Shown: positions 16,316 to 62,687, numbered from the stretch's first letter. The stretch: 64,000 nt of DNA from a bacterium (GCA_036787775.1 DAIQOR010000001.1:30521-94520); one strand, 5' to 3'. The notes: generated by a model from the sequence alone, not told the origin. Numbers and translations are program-made.

Positions 16316-17542
16316 TTACCTTAATTTCACGAACAAGAAACTGAATATAAACATTATGGTATTAGAGAACATAAAAGCCAAAGTGTATTCTAACACGTTA
16401 CTATGGAAGAAAGAAAGAAGAACAATCTCAATCACCAAGAATATCACAAGGAATTTGCTATATCTCAAATTGTTTGTTGATAGCCCATAGACAAGAACGA
16501 GGTTACTCAAAGATAAAAGACTAAATGCAATTCCAGAATAAACCAGATAAGGTGCCATTTCAAGGTATTGGGCTCCATACAAAATTTTAATTATTAATTC
16601 CGGCAAAAGATAATAAAATAGGGCTACAATAAAACAAACGAAAGAGATAATTAAAAAAGATTTCTTAAAAATATTTAATGAATTTTTATTGTCGTCACTT
16701 TTTTCAGAAGTTAAAGGGAACATTACCTTATTTATTGCCGCAGTTCCGAAAAAGATTATTTTTCCTAACATCGATAAAACTGCATATTGACCAGCAATCT
16801 CTGGAGAAAAAAATCTTTTTGCCAAAAGAATATCTAAACTAAAAATTAAAAGTATGACGGCCATTGTGACAAAATAAGGAACGCTCTGAAAGTAAATTCC
16901 CTTAAATTCTGTCGCTTTTTCGTCTTTATGTAAAACATCTTTATTTGAATAAATAGCAAATATTAAACTTGCCAAAGTTCCCAAAACGGCCCCAATCATC
17001 GCCCCAAAAACTTTGAATCCAAATAGCACGAAAGAAATAGCAAAAAATAATTTTAAAGTGGATTCAATTATCATGTTTCCTCCCAACGCCCCAAATTTTT
17101 TACGTCCCTGCAAAACACCTCTTGCGACGGGATTAGAAAATGTTACGAAAATTAAAAGGTTGGTAACAAAAATTAACCAAAAACTTATTCTTAAATAAAT
17201 TGAAAGAGGTATTGCAATAAGTGCAAGGATTAAAAAAAGAATTCCTGAGATAGAAACGGATTTTTTCAAAGATTTTTTCAATAAATATTTTATTTCGCCA
17301 ATTTTATTTTTAGCATTTAGATTAGAAGTCAATTTGGTGATAAGATTTTGAATCGCTTCAGCAGGAATAGTATAAATATAAACGAGAGACATTAGCACGG
17401 CAAGCACACCATAACATTCAGGCCCCAACATTCGCCCCATTGCAAAATGAAACAAAAAATTCAAAACATTGTAAATGTTCATAGTAATTAATAATACAAT
17501 AGTCCCTTTTCCTAATTCTCCAAAAAAAGATTTCCCAGTCAT
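16316..17542 (-). CDS. Oligosaccharide flippase (MOP superfamily; Wzx/AglR-like polysaccharide biosynthesis protein)
   Basis: 408 aa, about 12 TM, position immediately upstream of GlcNAc-1-P transferase and aglB. Confidence 0.55.
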   Translation of the reverse strand: MTGKSFFGELGKGTIVLLITMNIYNVLNFLFHFAMGRMLGPECYGVLAVLMSLVYIYTIPAEAIQNLITKLTSNLNAKNKIGEIKYLLKKSLKKSVSISGILFLILALIAIPLSIYLRISFWLIFVTNLLIFVTFSNPVARGVLQGRKKFGALGGNMIIESTLKLFFAISFVLFGFKVFGAMIGAVLGTLASLIFAIYSNKDVLHKDEKATEFKGIYFQSVPYFVTMAVILLIFSLDILLAKRFFSPEIAGQYAVLSMLGKIIFFGTAAINKVMFPLTSEKSDDNKNSLNIFKKSFLIISFVCFIVALFYYLLPELIIKILYGAQYLEMAPYLVYSGIAFSLLSLSNLVLVYGLSTNNLRYSKFLVIFLVIEIVLLSFFHSNVLEYTLAFMFSNTIMFIFSFLFVKLR

Positions 17543-17543
17543 T

Positions 17544-18548
17544 TTAACCAGCGTAAATTCCCCCGAAAAGCATTAATCCGACGAGAATAATAATTATTTG
17601 GAACAAATTAACTATATAAACAACTTCTTTTTCATAAACTTTTCCACTCTTTTTAATTTTCTTCAAAACATAAATTGCAATATGTTCTAATCCATAAAAC
17701 TTTTCGTAAGGAACATCCAAAGTTCCGTCTTCTTGAACTTTCCCAAAACTCTGTTTCCTAAGTTTACCTCTTAATTTTAAACCAGTCTCAAGAATATACG
17801 GAATAAAAAAGAACACTGCTATTTTTTCCACATTTCCTAAAATAGCCATGCAAGCAATCAAAGCACCGACGGAATATGTCAAAACATCTCCAGGGAAAAT
17901 TTTTGCAGGGTATTTGTTAAAAACATAAAAAGCCAACAAACAAAAAATCATCACAAGCCCAATTAATGCCAACCAACTATTTCCAGCAATATAATTAACA
18001 AAAGATAGAGCCCCCAATAAAATTATTCCTTGACTTGTTTCAATTCCATTATAGCCTGCAATAAAATTAAATGTTGAAGATGCTCCAACAACTCCAAGAG
18101 GAATTAAAATCAAAGGATACCATAAACCAAACTCGATTCCTATCATACTCGATTCCCCCGCATTTATTACCATCAAGGGTATTGCTGCGAAAATCAAAAG
18201 TAAAATTCTAAATCTTGCTGAAAGCCCACCCTTAACCCATCCAAAAATGTCGTCGACAAATCCAATAAATCCCGCAAGAAAAACAGTCATAAGCAAAGCA
18301 AATATTTGAGTCGTATAAATATCTGTTTTCAAAATAAATGTTTTCAAAGCAATGTAAAGTAATACTCCAAATAAAAATCCAAATAAAACAATTATTCCTC
18401 CAGAACCAGAAACATTTTTCGGATGCCCTTTTTTATTCATATCTTCCCAAATTAATCCAATGTTTTTTGCCTTCTTAATCCACAAAGGTGTAAAAAATAA
18501 AGTAACAAGAAAACTAAATATCAATGAGATTATAAGTAATGATTCCAT
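17544..18548 (-). CDS. UDP-GlcNAc:dolichyl-phosphate GlcNAc-1-phosphate transferase (MraY/WecA/AglH family)
   Basis: Polytopic; conserved FIGFVDDIFG aspartate motif of MraY/WecA family; start set to ATG at 18546-18548 directly abutting aglB stop. Confidence 0.7.
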   Translation of the reverse strand: MESLLIISLIFSFLVTLFFTPLWIKKAKNIGLIWEDMNKKGHPKNVSGSGGIIVLFGFLFGVLLYIALKTFILKTDIYTTQIFALLMTVFLAGFIGFVDDIFGWVKGGLSARFRILLLIFAAIPLMVINAGESSMIGIEFGLWYPLILIPLGVVGASSTFNFIAGYNGIETSQGIILLGALSFVNYIAGNSWLALIGLVMIFCLLAFYVFNKYPAKIFPGDVLTYSVGALIACMAILGNVEKIAVFFFIPYILETGLKLRGKLRKQSFGKVQEDGTLDVPYEKFYGLEHIAIYVLKKIKKSGKVYEKEVVYIVNLFQIIIILVGLMLFGGIYAG

Positions 18549-18549
18549 T

Positions 18550-21306
18550 TTAGAATTTCCAAGGAACATATTTAGATGAGTCTCTATCAAGATATTTCTC
18601 TTTTGTTTTTTCATCCACGGAAAATCCTTCAGGATATTCAATTTCCCAAATTTTTATTGGGCCCCTAATTCCTTGGTAATAAACAAATTCTGGAAGATTC
18701 ATTCCTTGGCTCCTCAAACTAGAAATAATTAAATCTGATTCAACATGAGCAATTTTAAAATTTGGAAAATTATTGAAAGGGTCATTCAAAATATATTTCT
18801 GAACAAGCATACCCCTCATTAATCTTGGGCTTAAGAAAAGAGCCATTCCAATAGGATTTGTTTGCACATTTTGCCCATTAGAACTTATTGAAGGAAAAAT
18901 AAAAATTGTTGCATTTATGCCGGACTTGAAATCATAAAAACCATCATTTGTTGAAACATACCTAACATTCACTTTGTGTTGAACTCCGTTATAAACCATT
19001 ATGACATATGGTTGAAGAGCAGATAACTTTCCATTTTCGTCTTTTTTAGAAGGAACAATTGCTGCTCCGATGCCAGTATTTCCTGAAGGAAGAAAAATTT
19101 CCTTTCCATTTTCTTCAATAATTAAATCTTCATCCAAAGCAATTCCTCCAGAATACACATAAGTAGTTTCTTCTTTTGTTTCATAAGTTTGTTTTTCATC
19201 CAATCCCATTACTCCTATCCAAGAAACTCTATCAAAATCCTCATCAGAACCGATGCTAGAAAAAGCCCCATATTTTCCAATATCTGAAGAGTCAATTAAA
19301 AAATAATTTGCATCATGAGTATACAAAAATTCCAAAGCATCTTTTTGATTGTCTCCTGTCAGAACTAATCTACCCATCCAATAATTCCAGAAAGAAATAG
19401 CATTCCCTCCATCCAAAACTGTTGCCCTTTTACCAATACTTTGCACCCAATATCCATAATCCCACCAGTGCCCAAAAACAGATTCTTGAGGCGTCTCAGT
19501 TCTAACCCAATCCATCGCCTTTTGCCATTGCTGAGTATAACCCGAAGGAATCATATTATATGATTGAGCCTTTATTTGTCCGTAATATGTCCAGAAAATA
19601 AAAATACTCAATAAAATAATTGTAATTGCAAGGATTCCCAAAATTAATCTCTTTGTCTCATTCTTTTCCTTGAAAAAACTTTCCACACTTTCATAATTCA
19701 AATAAGCCAAAAAAATCGGAGCAATAGGTCCCAAAACCATAATCAATCGAACTGCACCTCTTGCACTAAAAATAGAAATTAATAAAACAACAAGTAAAAA
19801 AATATACTCAAATCTTATTTTTTTCAATAATTTTTTATCTTCTTTATTATATCTCAAATAAATCTTTGTTGCCAAATAGAAAAATAATAAAACTGCTCCA
19901 TAATAAACAAATTTACTTATAAAATTCTCTCCATTAAAAATACTTGAACCAGAATATCTTGAGAAAATCATTCCCAACAACACCAACGCAAAAGAACCAG
20001 TTAAAATCCAAGCATCTTTTTTCTTAAGTCTTTTCAACATTTTTTTAAATAGAGCAATTGAACCAATAACAAATGCCCAGAACATTAAAGCGATTCCTCC
20101 AACATGCGGACCAAAACTTGCTTCCCATTCTATAAAGTAAGGTTGCCTATTTTCTGCAACAGTTGTGTTCCATCTTCCAGTAACTGGTTTAAATATTTGC
20201 TGATGGATTGCCTTTGCTTTATCCATAACAAAAGAAGTGTCTACAAAGACTGTTGCAAAAATAATCACTAAAAGAATGGTGAAAATTAAAGAGATAATTT
20301 GTTTTGGAAGTTTTATCTTTTTTAATGTTTCATTTTTTGAAATTTTTGTATTCCATATTAAAAAGTGAATTACCATTATGATTAAAACCAGGAATGCAAT
20401 TCCCATATCAAGCGAAGTTATCATATTTTTTAATTTCATATATGGTTGAATGATAAGAGTTAGAATTGTTGAAATAAGAATCCATATAATATAGACTGTG
20501 TATTGATTTAAGTCAACCTTATTCAAGATGAATGCAATTAAGACGGATATCGCTAAAGGAATATAAATAAACATTACTCCTCCCCAAATCGCTCCCATAA
20601 GGGATGTTGAAATTCCAGTCAACACCCCAAAAAGAACCGCGAATTTAATCTTTTCACTTTTCCATGCTTTTAAAAATAAATAAAATGTTAAGAACATAAA
20701 GAAAAATGCCGCAGATTCTTTTTCAGGAATTCCAGCAATTGTTCGAGATAAAAATACGGGAGTAACAATCATAAAAAAAGTCGAGATTAAAGCAATAATA
20801 TTCGCCTTAGTTTTGCTCTTAGGACTTTTTCTAACAAAAACTTCTCTAACAAAAAGGAAGAAAGAAATTATTGTCAAAGCAAACATAATCACAGGAAACA
20901 ATGCAGCAGAAAATTCAATATTATTTGCAGAATAAAAAAGATTTGTAATTGAGTAAGTCCAAACAATCATTTTTGGGAGAAGCATGGTTTCTTTTGCTGT
21001 TTCAAAACCAAGAGGGGTATTTCTCATCATGTCTATTTTAGCTACAGAACCATTGTCAATAATTTCCCCTGCATATCGTGTAAATAACCATGGATCTAAA
21101 TCTGGTCCGAGTGTCCAATTATTTGTTGTAAAATCCCACAAACCGGGAAATCCGCCGTGATCCTGCATGGGCAAAGTACGAATATAAATTCCCAAAACTA
21201 AAGCAACAATCAACAATCCAATAACCCAAACTTGCTTCTTCTTTAGAAAATCTAAAACCTTCGCTTTTCTTTTTTCCAAATCCTCGAATGTATTTTCTGT
21301 TTCCAT
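18550..21306 (-). CDS. aglB: Archaeal oligosaccharyltransferase AglB (STT3)
   Basis: 918 aa, N-terminal multi-TM domain, diagnostic WWDYGYW motif (HWWDYGYWVQ), C-terminal periplasmic domain. Confidence 0.9.
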   Translation of the reverse strand: METENTFEDLEKRKAKVLDFLKKKQVWVIGLLIVALVLGIYIRTLPMQDHGGFPGLWDFTTNNWTLGPDLDPWLFTRYAGEIIDNGSVAKIDMMRNTPLGFETAKETMLLPKMIVWTYSITNLFYSANNIEFSAALFPVIMFALTIISFFLFVREVFVRKSPKSKTKANIIALISTFFMIVTPVFLSRTIAGIPEKESAAFFFMFLTFYLFLKAWKSEKIKFAVLFGVLTGISTSLMGAIWGGVMFIYIPLAISVLIAFILNKVDLNQYTVYIIWILISTILTLIIQPYMKLKNMITSLDMGIAFLVLIIMVIHFLIWNTKISKNETLKKIKLPKQIISLIFTILLVIIFATVFVDTSFVMDKAKAIHQQIFKPVTGRWNTTVAENRQPYFIEWEASFGPHVGGIALMFWAFVIGSIALFKKMLKRLKKKDAWILTGSFALVLLGMIFSRYSGSSIFNGENFISKFVYYGAVLLFFYLATKIYLRYNKEDKKLLKKIRFEYIFLLVVLLISIFSARGAVRLIMVLGPIAPIFLAYLNYESVESFFKEKNETKRLILGILAITIILLSIFIFWTYYGQIKAQSYNMIPSGYTQQWQKAMDWVRTETPQESVFGHWWDYGYWVQSIGKRATVLDGGNAISFWNYWMGRLVLTGDNQKDALEFLYTHDANYFLIDSSDIGKYGAFSSIGSDEDFDRVSWIGVMGLDEKQTYETKEETTYVYSGGIALDEDLIIEENGKEIFLPSGNTGIGAAIVPSKKDENGKLSALQPYVIMVYNGVQHKVNVRYVSTNDGFYDFKSGINATIFIFPSISSNGQNVQTNPIGMALFLSPRLMRGMLVQKYILNDPFNNFPNFKIAHVESDLIISSLRSQGMNLPEFVYYQGIRGPIKIWEIEYPEGFSVDEKTKEKYLDRDSSKYVPWKF

Positions 21307-21438
21307 TTAATTTAACAATTCATCAGCGTTAAGATCTTTCATAACCATTTCCTTTCCACAATAAGGGCAAGGCTTGTCTCTTCTCTCGACTTCAGAATCA
21401 AATTTATAATTGCAATTTTTACAAACAAATTTCACCAT
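21307..21438 (-). CDS. Small zinc-ribbon protein (43 aa, CxxC...CxxC), not in ORF track
   Basis: Manual translation: MVKFVCKNCNYKFDSEVERRDKPCPYCGKEMVMKDLNADELLN; stop directly abuts aglB start codon (same strand, upstream). Confidence 0.5.
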   Translation of the reverse strand: MVKFVCKNCNYKFDSEVERRDKPCPYCGKEMVMKDLNADELLN

Positions 21439-21475
21439 AGTTTATGTAAATAATATCGATATATAAAGATTTCTT

Positions 21476-22324
21476 TTAAAAAATAAGTGGTGTTAAATAA
21501 ACCTCAATCACCGCAGCAAGGATTAAAATTACCACCGCTATAAACAATAACACAAATGCATTCTCCAAAACCCTCACAAATTTCTTATTTTTAACGCCGT
21601 GTCGAATAACTCCTACCCCAAATATTCCTCCAGCCAAAGCAGTCACAAAATATGCTGTAATTTCCGGAAATCCATGAATCATATATCTTCCAATTCCAAT
21701 AGGAATTTCTCCCAGAGAATAATTTGTAAAAATTCCTATCGCAGCCGCAATCACACTCGCGTTCCAAATTAAAATAAAAATCGCCCCGGCACCAAATATC
21801 AGCGAAAAAATTAAAGTAAAAATCATCACATAAACATTATTTTCCAAAATTGAAAGGAATCTCATTTCTTTACTTGCTCCTCCTGTTATCCCACCAGAGG
21901 TATATTGTGAAACACAACCCTCAACATTTCCAGGACTATTTATTTGACAATAAGTTCCAATCTGAAAGTTCAATAAATTCGAATCTTGCAAAACAATATT
22001 CCAAAACGAAAAAGCAATTATAAATCCAAGGAACAACCACATCAAAGCATAAATCGCATCCTTGTGCATATTCCAAACACTAAAAAATCCCTCGACGAGT
22101 TCGTCTTCTTTTTCTTCCTGTCTAATTAAATAATACATATATGGAAGTGTGAACATTATACAAAAAGCAATCACAATCATTCCTGAAGCTTTTGACAATT
22201 CAGGGTCCGAAGAAAAAAACCAATGCACCAACAACAAAGAAAGCGAAGCATAAACCAGCCCCACAAAAAGCATTTTCCAAGGTCCTTTCTCACTCTCTTT
22301 TGGATTAATTATCATCTCTAACAT
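21476..22324 (-). CDS. DUF95 / SpoIIM-family integral membrane protein
   Basis: C-terminal IHGFPEITAYFVTALAGG resembles the HGifEipAi...aG motif of PF01944; 282 aa with insertion containing Cys/Gly-rich loop. Confidence 0.45.
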   Translation of the reverse strand: MLEMIINPKESEKGPWKMLFVGLVYASLSLLLVHWFFSSDPELSKASGMIVIAFCIMFTLPYMYYLIRQEEKEDELVEGFFSVWNMHKDAIYALMWLFLGFIIAFSFWNIVLQDSNLLNFQIGTYCQINSPGNVEGCVSQYTSGGITGGASKEMRFLSILENNVYVMIFTLIFSLIFGAGAIFILIWNASVIAAAIGIFTNYSLGEIPIGIGRYMIHGFPEITAYFVTALAGGIFGVGVIRHGVKNKKFVRVLENAFVLLFIAVVILILAAVIEVYLTPLIF

Positions 22325-22383: not shown

Positions 22384-23205
22384 ATGAAATCATTTTTACA
22401 AAAAAGAAAACAATTTAATTTAATTGCCAGAGATATAAAATCAATTAAAATTCAAGGTGCAAGAAATGTCGCGAAGTCTGCGTTGAAAGCTTATCACTTA
22501 ATTCCGACGGAGAGGTCAAAAAAGAAACTTCTAAAACTTCGTCCGACAGAACCGATGCTTCAAAATGTTTTGGAAAAAGCAACAACCCAACCTTACAAAA
22601 AAGTTTTAGCTCATTTTGACGAAGCTCAAGAAAAAATAAACAAAAATGTTTTCCAATTAATAAATAATCACAACGTTCTTTTCACACACTGTCATTCCAC
22701 AAATGTTATCAACGCTTTAATTTATTCAAAAAAGAAAGGAAAAAAATTCGAAGTTTACAACACCGAAACAAGACCATTATTTCAAGGAAGAAGAACAGCA
22801 AAAGAATTGAAAAGAAATAAAATTAAAGTAACTATGTTTGTAGATTCTGCCCTAGGAATTGCTTTAAGCAAAGAACAGGGAACAAAAAAAGTAAATAAAA
22901 TTTTTCTCGGAGCTGACGCACTAACAAAAAAAGGAGTAATTAATAAGGTGGGTTCAGAAGTAATTGCACAAATCGCAAAAAATCAAAACATTCCATTTTA
23001 TATCGTCGCTGATTCTTGGAAATACACAAACAAAGATTTATCAATTGAACAAAGAGAATTAAATGAAGTTTGGGATAAAGCACTAGAGCACATCAAAATA
23101 AAAAATCCTGCATTCGAATTTGTCGATAAAAAATATATTACTGGAATTGTAACAGAATTAGGAATTATGAAATATGGGGAATTTGTTAAAAAAATAAAAA
23201 GTTAA
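22384..23205 (+). CDS. eIF-2B alpha/beta/delta family protein (candidate ribose-1,5-bisphosphate isomerase)
   Basis: IF-2B fold motifs FTHCHSTNV, IFLGADALTKKGVINKVGS, YIVADSWKY; ORF track starts at TTG 22357, first ATG 22384. Confidence 0.6.
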   Translation: MKSFLQKRKQFNLIARDIKSIKIQGARNVAKSALKAYHLIPTERSKKKLLKLRPTEPMLQNVLEKATTQPYKKVLAHFDEAQEKINKNVFQLINNHNVLFTHCHSTNVINALIYSKKKGKKFEVYNTETRPLFQGRRTAKELKRNKIKVTMFVDSALGIALSKEQGTKKVNKIFLGADALTKKGVINKVGSEVIAQIAKNQNIPFYIVADSWKYTNKDLSIEQRELNEVWDKALEHIKIKNPAFEFVDKKYITGIVTELGIMKYGEFVKKIKS

Positions 23206-23705
23206 CAACACCCACACTCTTCATCTTCGCAAGTACAATCTTCATCTTCACAGCATTTCTCTTCTTTTCCTTCACACTTACAATTTCCACCACAAGCATG
23301 ACCCCCGTTTTCCATTCCTTGAGCATCCATAACTGCTTTCGTCAATTCTTGATTAATATCTTCCATCGCGTTATCCAATTCAATTCTCGCTTTTCCCAAT
23401 CTCCTGAGTTGTTCTTGAATTAATGCCTTTGTTTCATCGATACTTTTCTTAACTAAATTTTTTTCTCCGACATCCACCAACAAATCCTCAGAAATTAATT
23501 TCGCTTTCGCAAAGATCCCTCGACCAATCGGCGCCATAATTTCCTTCCCTTTAGCACCTTTCAATTCATCAAGTCCTAAATTCAAAGAACTCAACTCAAC
23601 AGTCCCTTTCTCCACTGCCTCAAGCTGTTGCTGAATTTGCTGAATCTGTTGCTCAAACATCTGAAACTTTATCATAAGTTCTTGGTTCATTTCCATAATA
23701 TTCAC
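23202..23705 (-). CDS. pfdA: Prefoldin alpha subunit with Cys-rich acidic C-terminal tail
   Basis: Coiled coil - beta hairpin (KEIMAPIGRGIFAKAKLISEDLLVDVG) - coiled coil; tail HACGGNCKCEGKEEKCCEDEDCTCEDEECGCC. Confidence 0.65.
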   Translation of the reverse strand: MNIMEMNQELMIKFQMFEQQIQQIQQQLEAVEKGTVELSSLNLGLDELKGAKGKEIMAPIGRGIFAKAKLISEDLLVDVGEKNLVKKSIDETKALIQEQLRRLGKARIELDNAMEDINQELTKAVMDAQGMENGGHACGGNCKCEGKEEKCCEDEDCTCEDEECGCC

Positions 23706-23732: not shown

Positions 23733-24137
23733 TTAAGCAACATTCAAAACTTTTCTCAGAATAATACTCGAAGCAATCGCCCCGCCGAAATACCACCAGA
23801 ACCAACTTGCAAGCACTTCGGTATAAATTCCCCTTATCCAAGCGAACACGAGAATCAATGGAATAAAAGTATACAACATCGGTTTCATCGAATGTTTCAT
23901 CATCTCCATCGAGCAAGTCATCATTTCTTTCTGAATCTCGCCCTGCTTCTTCAAATCTCCCTTCGCATCTTTAATCTTAATCTGACACGCCTTCTGCACA
24001 GCCTTCAATTCCTTAAGTCTCTTCTGATCCGTAAACTTCTTCGTAACCAGCGTCATAAAAAGCGTAATCAAAAATGCAACTAAAACAACACTCACTTTCG
24101 CATTAACAATCATCCATTCTTTTATTATTTCCAACAT
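23733..24137 (-). CDS. DUF106 family membrane protein (archaeal YidC/Oxa1/EMC3-like insertase candidate)
   Basis: TM1 - basic coiled coil - TM2 - TM3 topology in 134 aa; immediately upstream of secY. Confidence 0.5.
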   Translation of the reverse strand: MLEIIKEWMIVNAKVSVVLVAFLITLFMTLVTKKFTDQKRLKELKAVQKACQIKIKDAKGDLKKQGEIQKEMMTCSMEMMKHSMKPMLYTFIPLILVFAWIRGIYTEVLASWFWWYFGGAIASSIILRKVLNVA

Positions 24138-24233: not shown

Positions 24234-25688
24234 TTAACCACCCATGAATTTCTTCATAGCAGGATTCATATCTTCTGCGTGTTTCTGTGCAATGCTCTGA
24301 TAGAACTGGAACATAATCATAATTACCAACAGCATCGCTGTTCCTGCAACCAAAGCACCCATCATGTTTGTTATCGACGCCAAGAAACCAATTGCCGCAC
24401 CACCCATAACTGTCAAAGGCATAATGTATCTATCTAAAATACTTTCTAAAATTCTAATGTCTTGTCTGAAACCTGCAACTTGCAATCCCGAAGCCGCAAT
24501 TTTCTGAGCCTGCGCTTTTGAATCCATCCCGGAAGTTTTAACCCAGAACACCGAAAAAATAGCACAGAAAATAATAAAGAAAAGCATGTGAGTAATTCCT
24601 TGAATTAAATAAATCCATAAAAATCCTCCCCGGATTAATAATTCTAAAATATTAGTTGAACCTAACCAAAACGCCATTCCCGAAACTGCTTGCCCGTCGA
24701 CAAAGTGTCCAAAGAAAGTAAAGTAAGAAGCAATTTTCGCACTGCCAGCACAAACCGCGCCTTCAACAGCATTATCTAAACAAGGTGCCGCAACATTTTC
24801 AATAAGCCCACCGAACAATTGCATATTTGCCAAAAGTGCCGAAACTAAAATAACTGGAATAACTGAAGCATAAAAGAAAGACAACGGCCACTTAATTGAG
24901 TAACCTCTTATTCTTCCAAAAGATAAAGGAATTTCAACTTTCAAAGATTGTGCCCAAACAACAGCCAAGAAAATAACAATTGTAGCAAGAATTGCCGCCG
25001 CCGCCGAAACAAATTCAATAGGATATTTATTTATCACCGACTGAATTAAAACTAAAATTTTCCCCGAGCAAGCGGTGTTCTTAAAATCTAACAAACAATT
25101 TCTTCCCTGAGTATCAACAAACTGCAACGCGCTCGTAATAATTCTCCACGAAACTCCCGCACCAATAAATAAACTAACTCCTGAACCGAAACCCCATTTT
25201 TCAGAAAGTTCGTTCATATAAAAAATCGCCAGTCCTCCAAGAATCAACTGACCAATAACTATCCAAGTAAAACCTGGCAACGCTTGAAGACCCTGCATCA
25301 AAACATAAATCATCGCCTCGAACACAATAAAAAAGAAAGTTAATAATTTCTGAAGTCCCCCGAAAAACTTTTTACCCTCGGCAGTGGTGGTGTCAATATT
25401 AATAATTCCAGAACCCGACAGCAACTGCAAAATAATCGAAGCCATTACGATTGGACCAATACCTAAAGAAATTATTGAACCAAAATCTGTTCCAAGAATA
25501 ATCGCAAGATATTCAAACCGACTCAAAGCATTCGCCGACAAACCGAAAAGCGAAACATTCGCCAAAATAAAAAACGCTCCCAACACAATTAAAGTCCATT
25601 TCAACTTCGTGTTAAAGTCAAGTTTTTTCTCACTAGGACTCTTCACTTCCGGAATGTAATTAAATAAATCTCTCAAAGCCATTTTCAA
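24234..25688 (-). CDS. secY: Preprotein translocase subunit SecY
   Basis: 484 aa, 10 TM, archaeal SecY N-terminus MKMALRDLFNYIPEV...; follows L15 in ribosomal cluster. Confidence 0.9.
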   Translation of the reverse strand: MKMALRDLFNYIPEVKSPSEKKLDFNTKLKWTLIVLGAFFILANVSLFGLSANALSRFEYLAIILGTDFGSIISLGIGPIVMASIILQLLSGSGIINIDTTTAEGKKFFGGLQKLLTFFFIVFEAMIYVLMQGLQALPGFTWIVIGQLILGGLAIFYMNELSEKWGFGSGVSLFIGAGVSWRIITSALQFVDTQGRNCLLDFKNTACSGKILVLIQSVINKYPIEFVSAAAAILATIVIFLAVVWAQSLKVEIPLSFGRIRGYSIKWPLSFFYASVIPVILVSALLANMQLFGGLIENVAAPCLDNAVEGAVCAGSAKIASYFTFFGHFVDGQAVSGMAFWLGSTNILELLIRGGFLWIYLIQGITHMLFFIIFCAIFSVFWVKTSGMDSKAQAQKIAASGLQVAGFRQDIRILESILDRYIMPLTVMGGAAIGFLASITNMMGALVAGTAMLLVIMIMFQFYQSIAQKHAEDMNPAMKKFMGG

Positions 25689-62329: not shown

Positions 62330-62548
62330 ATGACAACAAAAACAAAAAAAGCAAAAGCATCAGGAAGATTTGGAGCAAGATACGGTGGAACAGTAAGAGC
62401 AAGATTATCTAAAGTAGAAGAAAAACAAAGAGTAAAACAAAAATGTCCGTTCTGCGAAAGACCTGGAGCAAAAAGAGTTTCAAAAGGAATTTGGGAATGT
62501 TCAAAATGTAATAAAAAATTCGCCTCGAGCGTTTACCATCTAGATTAA
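62330..62548 (+). CDS. rpl37ae: Ribosomal protein eL43 (L37ae), C4 zinc finger
   Basis: CPFCERPGAKRVSKGIWECSKCNKKFA. Confidence 0.85.
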   Translation: MTTKTKKAKASGRFGARYGGTVRARLSKVEEKQRVKQKCPFCERPGAKRVSKGIWECSKCNKKFASSVYHLD

Positions 62549-62549
62549 A

Positions 62550-62687
62550 ATGACAAAATATAAATGTTTCAAATGTGGAAAGCCAATCAAGAACACTGAT
62601 TTGGACAAAAGATTCGTCTGCCCTTTTTGTGGTAGTAAAATTTTCTACAAACCACGAACAAAAGTAAAAATATTAAAGGCAGAGTAA
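62550..62687 (+). CDS. rpoP: DNA-directed RNA polymerase subunit Rpo12 (RpoP), 45 aa, not in ORF track
   Basis: Manual translation MTKYKCFKCGKPIKNTDLDKRFVCPFCGSKIFYKPRTKVKILKAE; CxxC-x15-CxxC; conserved L37ae-RpoP-PfdB neighbourhood. Confidence 0.7.
   Translation: MTKYKCFKCGKPIKNTDLDKRFVCPFCGSKIFYKPRTKVKILKAE

Follow-up and report, generated by a model that had tools for sequence, protein, structure and literature searches.

A conserved Cys4 zinc-ribbon microprotein gene directly upstream of aglB in Pacearchaeota-like DPANN archaea, and its tentative link to the oligosaccharyltransferase

What is the very short reading frame that ends exactly where aglB, the gene of an oligosaccharyltransferase, begins, and does its product have anything to do with AglB? 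The frame lies in a stretch of 64,000 nucleotides (hereafter the window; G+C 32%) and had been predicted from the sequence as an unannotated minus-strand zinc-ribbon ORF, with its stop codon immediately 5′ of the aglB ATG on the same strand. In this work, we refer to this 43-aa Cys4 microprotein upstream of aglB as ZR. Its coordinates, its ATG, its length of 43 aa and its translation, MVKFVCKNCNYKFDSEVERRDKPCPYCGKEMVMKDLNADELLN, were all reproduced exactly, and the junction indeed reads TAA and then ATG. The features at the core of the locus are:

21307-21438, minus strand: ZR coding sequence, 43 aa, from ORF and translation, with ATG start and TAA stop; CxxC pairs C6/C9 and C24/C27, then a short acidic C-terminal helix
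21304-21309, minus strand: TAAATG junction, where the ZR stop TAA (21309-21307) abuts the aglB ATG (21306-21304) with a 0-nt spacer
18550-21306, minus strand: aglB, STT3-family oligosaccharyltransferase, 918 aa (Pfam STT3 E 2.4e-13; TIGR04154 E 3.4e-25)

The term "unannotated" did not survive comparison with public data. The identical 43-aa protein has already been called as a gene, with no name, on at least 25 contigs from NCBI, JGI, ENA and Logan assemblies, so the term is true only of the earlier ORF track. Short frames with two CxxC pairs number six in the window, compared with a mean of 0.25 after shuffling, and the other five include L37ae, RpoP, L40e and an S14-like protein (L37ae and RpoP confirmed by scan, L40e and S14 named from their sequences). 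L37ae and RpoP are both shorter than 75 aa, and RpoP too falls under a 60-aa ORF cut-off. RpoP, which served as a control outside the aglB unit, is located as follows:

62550-62687, plus strand: RpoP, 45 aa, with basic tail IFYKPRTKVKILKAE, directly after L37ae (62330-62548)

The distribution of ZR was examined by an AglB-based scan with one genome per GTDB species, which yielded 80 loci with AglB identities of 42–66%. Together with L001, 81 loci were examined, of which five had too little upstream sequence, leaving 76 assessable. ZR homologues were located by a motif scan and then by a family HMM, which recognizes the ZR of the window at E 7.8e-20. Conservation upstream of aglB in related archaea, the check that the original prediction had proposed, was evident: in 47 of the 76 assessable species-level genomes, aglB is preceded on its strand by a gene for a ZR homologue of 42–51 aa. 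Where present, there is one homologue per locus, always upstream on the AglB strand, within about 400 nt of AglB in 46 loci and about 800 nt away in L047. The related genomes are recorded as Pacearchaeota, Woesearchaeota or Nanoarchaeota MAGs, and no member of the family has so far turned up outside Pacearchaeota-like DPANN archaea. A profile search of a 5.8-billion-protein set recovered 255 ZR clusters, with lengths of 44–67 aa among the best 120 of the 255, and an exhaustive phmmer search returned, in the best 150 of 220 matches, approximately 100 small relatives along with unrelated multi-ribbon proteins. No ZR-AglB fusion occurs among those best 120 of 255 clusters or best 150 of 220 phmmer matches.

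The four cysteines C6, C9, C24 and C27, together with A38, are invariant in alignments of 42 and 68 sequences; Met1 is fully conserved in one of the two and almost so in the other, and in the set of 68 Pro25, Tyr26, Glu33 and Glu35 vary little or not at all. For the closest ZR pairs, dN/dS (Nei-Gojobori) is 0.04–0.17, pN is lower than pS in 1080 of 1081 pairs, and the entropy at third codon positions is 1.34 bits versus 0.90 and 0.86 bits at the other two. ZR is under purifying selection as a protein-coding gene. The contrary outcome named in the original prediction, namely an unconserved frame with synonymous-like drift, was looked for and did not occur, as these dN/dS values indicate. An alternative in which the region acts as a structured RNA or riboswitch, and not as a gene, was rejected, given this protein-type selection pattern and a search of Rfam that gave no match at E≤1 within 20800-21900. 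The ZR frame is a genuine conserved protein-coding gene. In one locus (L012, 2861-2990), the homologue is interrupted by two frameshifts, each in a poly-A run, and this copy is either a decaying gene or the product of homopolymer assembly errors in the MAG.

The zinc-ribbon claim made for the frame was upheld by alignments, AlphaFold2 and Foldseek, in which the two Cys pairs form the invariant core of a Cys4 zinc-ribbon or rubredoxin-like fold. The protein is predicted to fold into a minimal rubredoxin-like Cys4 knuckle, after which comes an acidic amphipathic helix at the C-terminus. For a typical 48-aa homologue, AlphaFold2 (pLDDT 85) gives three strands and a C-terminal helix at residues 35–46, and for the ZR of the window (pLDDT 71) strands at residues 2–6, 12–15 and 32–34 and a helix at 38–42. 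The inter-knuckle spacer spans 10–14 residues in the family. The window protein, whose spacer has 14 residues and whose tail is cut to 16, is an atypical member. Charge is unevenly distributed along the family, with a median of +2 in the ribbon half and −4 in the tail, and the overall charge is acidic. Read directly, the sequence has neither a signal peptide nor a hydrophobic segment, and ZR should therefore be cytoplasmic.

No Pfam or NCBIfam model reaches its cut-off on ZR. In Pfam, the window protein scores best with Zn_ribbon_8 (residues 4–32, 23.4 bits, E 6e-5, gathering cut-off 34.4), which matches 17 of 42 family members at E≤0.01. Weak matches across the family are most often to the HypA zinc domain (36 of 42), DUF7129 (33 of 42) and PF21349, the rubredoxin-like domain of rubrerythrin (25 of 42, best E 3e-8), with further weak matches to TFIIB, TFE and Spt4-type ribbons. 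Although ZR shares the CxxC...CPxCG layout of the Zn_ribbon_8/FmdB proteins (PF09723, TIGR02605), its 23.4 bits fall below the cut-off of 34.4, and FmdB-type proteins are themselves of unknown function. Foldseek returned generic Cys4 ribbons only, including rubredoxins, Rpb12, the MCM zinc site, L40e and reverse gyrase, all at E≥0.02.

ZR and aglB belong to a longer run of minus-strand genes. AglB of the window contains HWWDYGYW (the WWDYG motif) and scores 88.5 bits against TIGR04154, under its 450-bit cut-off. The neighbours on the same strand are:

24234-25688, minus strand: SecY, same-strand neighbour
23733-24137, minus strand: EMC3/DUF106-like protein, same-strand neighbour
23202-23705, minus strand: prefoldin (alpha-like), same-strand neighbour
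21476-22324, minus strand: SpoIIM-like membrane protein gene (Pfam PF01944 E 2.7e-15), the usual upstream neighbour of ZR
17544-18569, minus strand: GT4-family glycosyltransferase (AglH-like), 341 aa (Pfam PF00953 E 1.3e-29), downstream of aglB
16316-17542, minus strand: Wzx-like polysaccharide/oligosaccharide flippase (Polysacc_synt_3 E 3.2e-16), last gene of the same-strand run

The stop codon of the SpoIIM-like gene is 37 nt from the ZR ATG. At the other end of aglB, the start of the GT4 gene, whose coordinate was converted from a public gene call (L003 5870, 341 aa), overlaps the aglB 3′ end by 20 nt (18550-18569, public gene calls), suggesting that the operon continues downstream. The position of the flippase gene is repeated in homologous loci, and the block conserved in the clade comprises SecY, EMC3-like, prefoldin, IF-2B-like, SpoIIM, ZR, AglB, GT4 and flippase genes. 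The prefoldin-alpha-like ORF carries an unusual Cys/Glu-rich C-terminal tail, GGHACGGNCKCEGKEEKCCEDEDCTCEDEECGCC, metal-binding in look.

Two putative promoter elements lie between the SpoIIM-like gene and ZR:

21460-21467, minus strand: TATA-box-like TTTATATA, starting 29 nt upstream of the ZR ATG, putative
21468-21475, minus strand: BRE-like purine-rich AAGAAATC, immediately 5′ of the TATA-like element, putative

The combined element, AAGAAATC-TTTATATA, sits inside the 37-nt SpoIIM-ZR gap. When strict TTTAWAWA matches in 46 homologous loci were counted against random positions, a match was found to start between −45 and −26 of the ZR ATG in 24 of the 46 loci, versus 2% of random positions, and the mode of the TATA position across loci is −29, the same as in the window. 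Archaeal TATA boxes are centred approximately 26–27 nt before the transcription start site, and a TATA start at −29 thus implies a leaderless or very short-leader ZR mRNA. In the window, no TATA-like element is present in the 80 nt before the aglB ATG, which indicates that aglB is read from the ZR transcript. Judging from these putative elements, transcription in the window most likely yields a leaderless or short-leader mRNA in which ZR comes first and aglB follows. Co-transcription with ZR as first cistron, as originally predicted, is the natural reading of a putative BRE/TATA before ZR and none before aglB. That ZR is a real expressed gene co-transcribed with aglB in the window appears highly probable.

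The arrangement also bears on translation. In Haloferax volcanii and Escherichia coli, Huber et al. found that termination-reinitiation requires genes to overlap or to be separated by a very short spacer, and that gene pairs coupled in this way are enriched for subunits of heteromeric complexes (PMC10666635). In the window, ZR and aglB lie on the same strand with no promoter between them and with a spacer inside the limit for operon partners (about 4 nt or less, or an overlap). Among the 46 loci, the ZR-aglB spacer is at most 17 nt in 24 and ranges from −8 to +4 nt in 13 (TAAATG, TAAaATG, ATGA and TAATG forms). The spacers in 22 of the 46 are 30–384 nt long, mostly with a second BRE/TATA approximately 33–36 nt before aglB; therefore, coupling is not family-wide. 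ZR-aglB coupling, as predicted from these junctions, is a lineage-specific state and not a property of the whole family. Read-through of the ZR stop codon into a ZR-AglB fusion was considered and rejected, because the in-frame layout is peculiar to the window (spacers elsewhere include −8, −4, −1, 1, 2, 4, 8 and 11 nt); the lack of fused proteins among the matches listed also disfavours it.

Whether ZR follows AglB or simply its place in the genome can be judged from the loci in which the order has changed. ZR-centred sampling, with ZR and not AglB as the query, led through a narrowed family alignment to 11 loci, and AglB lies downstream in 13 of 14 informative ZR-centred loci. A SpoIIM-like gene is directly upstream in 31 of the 41 ZR-bearing loci with enough sequence. 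In the remaining ten, no SpoIIM-like gene immediately precedes ZR on its strand, and ZR still stands directly before AglB. Most of these ten have an unrelated gene upstream, such as a radical SAM or Lrp-like one; in L047 SpoIIM has been inverted, and L054 carries an additional inserted gene, with ZR kept before AglB in both. Two further rearrangements were noted: a SIS_2-domain gene is inserted between ZR and AglB in L094 (4137-4787), and in L103 (2447-5133) SpoIIM-ZR is followed by opposite-strand genes, one of them RfaE-like by eye, with no AglB downstream. Conversely, 29 of the 76 assessable loci (~38%) have no ZR within 3 kb of aglB. They include L009, which harbours the closest AglB relative (66% identity), and in 19 of the 29 SpoIIM directly precedes AglB. 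ZR thus appears dispensable or replaceable at aglB. In addition, the SecY-to-flippase region is syntenic in the clade, so the ZR-aglB adjacency may partly be inherited gene order.

Sequence divergence follows the upstream flank more than AglB. ZR distances show a partial r of 0.27 with the SpoIIM-like gene versus 0.14 with AglB, both weak, and co-evolution of ZR with AglB was rejected on the grounds that these correlations are weak and favour SpoIIM. A comparison of the window (18550-21306) with L079, L086, L095, L073, L098, L101 and L009 further revealed discordance between AglB and its flanks: the SpoIIM-like protein of the window is 70–74% identical to its L086/L095 counterparts and ZR is 67% identical, whereas AglB is only 42–44% identical. 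The window AglB is of a 'PMQDHGG' type (closest to L009, 66%), versus an 'IRTRNIPKLKD' type at the SpoIIM-related loci. This pattern suggests that the aglB cassette may have been exchanged at a fixed locus. The window thus combines SpoIIM, ZR and GT4 of one lineage with AglB of another type, and no specific co-evolution is visible.

If ZR touches AglB, the AglB N-terminus is a plausible site. The conserved basic cytoplasmic segment before TM1 is EKRKAKVLDFLKKK in the window, and its consensus, ERKEKxxxFLKK, is conserved equally with or without ZR. A basic segment at this position is also expected from the positive-inside rule. The median length of the AglB N-terminus is 74 where ZR is present and 76 where it is absent. 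An N-terminal extension of AglB (...DISKEI...AEKEEKIAKAVSEIP...) occurs in the ZR-less loci L019, L023, L060, L061, L064 and L072 and in the ZR-bearing L073, that is, in 1 of 46 ZR-bearing versus 6 of 30 ZR-less loci (Fisher p 0.013, not phylogeny-corrected). That the AEKEEKIAKAVSEIP extension is a remnant of a fused ZR was rejected, since the family HMM finds no similarity to ZR in it, L073 has both the extension and ZR, and the N-terminal lengths are equal with and without ZR. AglB of L015, L024, L048 and L069 has long N-terminal extensions made of tandem acidic 'DSKIE / EDSxI'-like repeats.

Based on these observations, a working model can be outlined. Transcription would begin from the BRE/TATA 29 nt upstream of the ZR ATG and give a leaderless or near-leaderless mRNA that covers ZR and aglB and probably extends to the GT4 and flippase genes. 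At the TAAATG junction, aglB translation would depend on termination-reinitiation after ZR, and the two proteins would be made in a fixed ratio from one mRNA. ZR would hold one metal ion, probably Zn, through its four cysteines, and might be caught as the AglB N-terminus emerges, most plausibly by pairing of its acidic helix with the basic ERKEKxxxFLKK segment, thereby aiding the biogenesis, stability or activity of AglB. Neighbourhood, coupling and charge complementarity are the basis for reading ZR as a metal-binding, non-essential cytoplasmic partner of AglB, a role we put forward tentatively, as one that may well prove wrong. The regulatory or assembly role at the oligosaccharyltransferase suggested in the original prediction is likewise plausible, with gene neighbourhood as its basis. 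For the statement as a whole, covering gene, operon, coupling and partner function, the chances seem somewhat short of even. In its boldest form, ZR would be a cytoplasmic accessory subunit dedicated to the oligosaccharyltransferase, the first of its kind in archaea, made by termination-reinitiation and clamping the nascent AglB N-terminus, which we regard as improbable. Archaeal AglB is regarded as a single-subunit enzyme, unlike the multi-subunit eukaryotic oligosaccharyltransferase; were ZR such a subunit, AglB of these DPANN archaea would not be single-subunit. The idea of a mini-subunit is shared with small oligosaccharyltransferase subunits of the Ost4 type, which are likewise very small and genetically tied to an STT3-family subunit. 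However, Ost4 is a single transmembrane helix without metal, ZR is predicted to be soluble and cytoplasmic, and there is no sequence or fold relationship between them.

Against the AglB-partner reading stand four others, two of which concern what kind of protein ZR is. Public names would make it RpoP (Rpo12) or a rubrerythrin, the latter in keeping with an iron rubredoxin-type electron carrier: P0069 (L010) is called "DNA-directed RNA polymerase subunit P" by NCBI PGAP, and several homologues are called "rubrerythrin" (JGI). RpoP/Rpo12/Rpb12 resembles ZR in size (~45–48 aa) and in its Cys4 ribbon, and Rpb12 chains and rubredoxins (TM ~0.55–0.6) are the top Foldseek matches of ZR. The M-x-K-[FYW]-V-C-x-x-C-[GN]-Y first knuckle and CP-x-CG second knuckle align to Pyrococcus furiosus rubredoxin, Pfam RUBY_RBDX matches 25 of 42 ZR members, and the family profile finds rubredoxin among PDB sequences through both knuckles only (E 8e-4). 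Yet RpoP differs from ZR in its basic C-terminal tail and its place beside L37ae, and precisely such a canonical RpoP is encoded separately in the same window. Its best NCBIfam RpoP score is 46.5 bits (E 2.2e-12) versus 15.6 bits for ZR, where model cut-offs are 63–103 bits (72–103 for the four models matched by ZR); with its acidic tail, and not being next to L37ae, ZR is therefore not RpoP. A full rubredoxin was rejected as well, because only profile residues 1–16 and 20–33 align, in two pieces. The aligned knuckles lie approximately 20 residues further apart in P. furiosus rubredoxin, whose loop and aromatic core are missing from ZR, while ZR has an added acidic helix; no structure match is better than E 0.02, and redox genes are absent nearby. 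Either identity is thus extremely unlikely. A role as a small nucleic-acid-binding regulator of the aglB, GT4 and flippase genes fits the basic ribbon half and the weak TFIIB, TFE and Spt4-type matches, and it has a precedent in H. volcanii, where deletion of HVO_0758 up-regulated six agl genes and an HVO_2753 mutant raised expression of glycan-biosynthesis genes (PMC10716476). Like ZR, these proteins are archaeal, shorter than 70 aa and cytoplasmic with CxxC/CPxCG knuckles, and theirs bind zinc (PMC10716476). However, there is no homology beyond the knuckles: HVO_2753 has four motifs versus two pairs and an acidic helix in ZR, the HVO_2753_ZBP model scores 13.8 bits on ZR (E 0.05) versus a cut-off of 33.2, and NF041909 is unmatched. 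The H. volcanii proteins also come from a different phylum and are not reported as aglB neighbours (PMC10716476). Given, in addition, an overall acidic charge with a strongly negative tail, and a tight 1:1 translational coupling to the target that would be unusual for a regulator, we consider this role quite improbable.

The other two readings concern the position of the gene. ZR may have a job unrelated to AglB, as a general zinc-finger protein or a partner of the SpoIIM-like protein, and stand before aglB by inherited gene order. Conservation of the whole SecY-to-flippase block is in line with this, as are the ZR distances, which track SpoIIM better than AglB, the swapping of AglB types at a locus where ZR and SpoIIM stay, the SpoIIM-ZR pair without AglB in L103, and the loss of ZR from 38% of loci with no visible change in AglB. 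The opposing evidence is that ten loci have lost the same-strand SpoIIM-ZR adjacency yet kept ZR-AglB, compared with one opposite case, and that ZR and aglB overlap or lie within 4 nt of each other in 13 loci, which would be unexpected for unrelated genes (PMC10666635). On balance, inherited order as the full explanation seems rather unlikely, and yet deserves serious consideration. Alternatively, the ORF might matter chiefly as part of the mRNA, a leader cistron recruiting ribosomes to aglB, with the peptide itself of little importance. The TATA at −29, implying a leaderless mRNA, would suit such a device, as would an aglB that follows without a spacer and lacks an obvious, suitably placed Shine-Dalgarno sequence. 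By contrast, the strong amino-acid conservation, with low dN/dS and invariant Cys and Ala residues, points to the peptide, and about half of the loci keep ZR despite a spacer of 40–380 nt and a second promoter. This selection pattern largely refutes the leader-cistron explanation, which is left with very little probability.

A 2024 review of archaeal N-glycosylation does not mention an accessory protein for AglB (PMC11407970), and in the full-text literature we found no paper tying AglB to a zinc ribbon or microprotein and none specific for Pacearchaeota. ZR represents a new family within the archaeal Cys4 zinc-finger microproteins, and its tie to aglB is suggestive, though incomplete. As such, it offers a concrete and cheap accessory-factor candidate for AglB across a whole order of DPANN archaea; if the neighbourhood reflects inherited synteny only, ZR would be one more uncharacterised archaeal zinc-finger microprotein. 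The family is also of value for annotation, since its more than 250 clusters bear contradictory names and are missed by any pipeline with a 60-aa cut-off. The automatic names in conflict within it are hypothetical protein, RpoP, rubrerythrin, DUF1610 RNA-binding, Nob1, biotin synthase-like and IspG.
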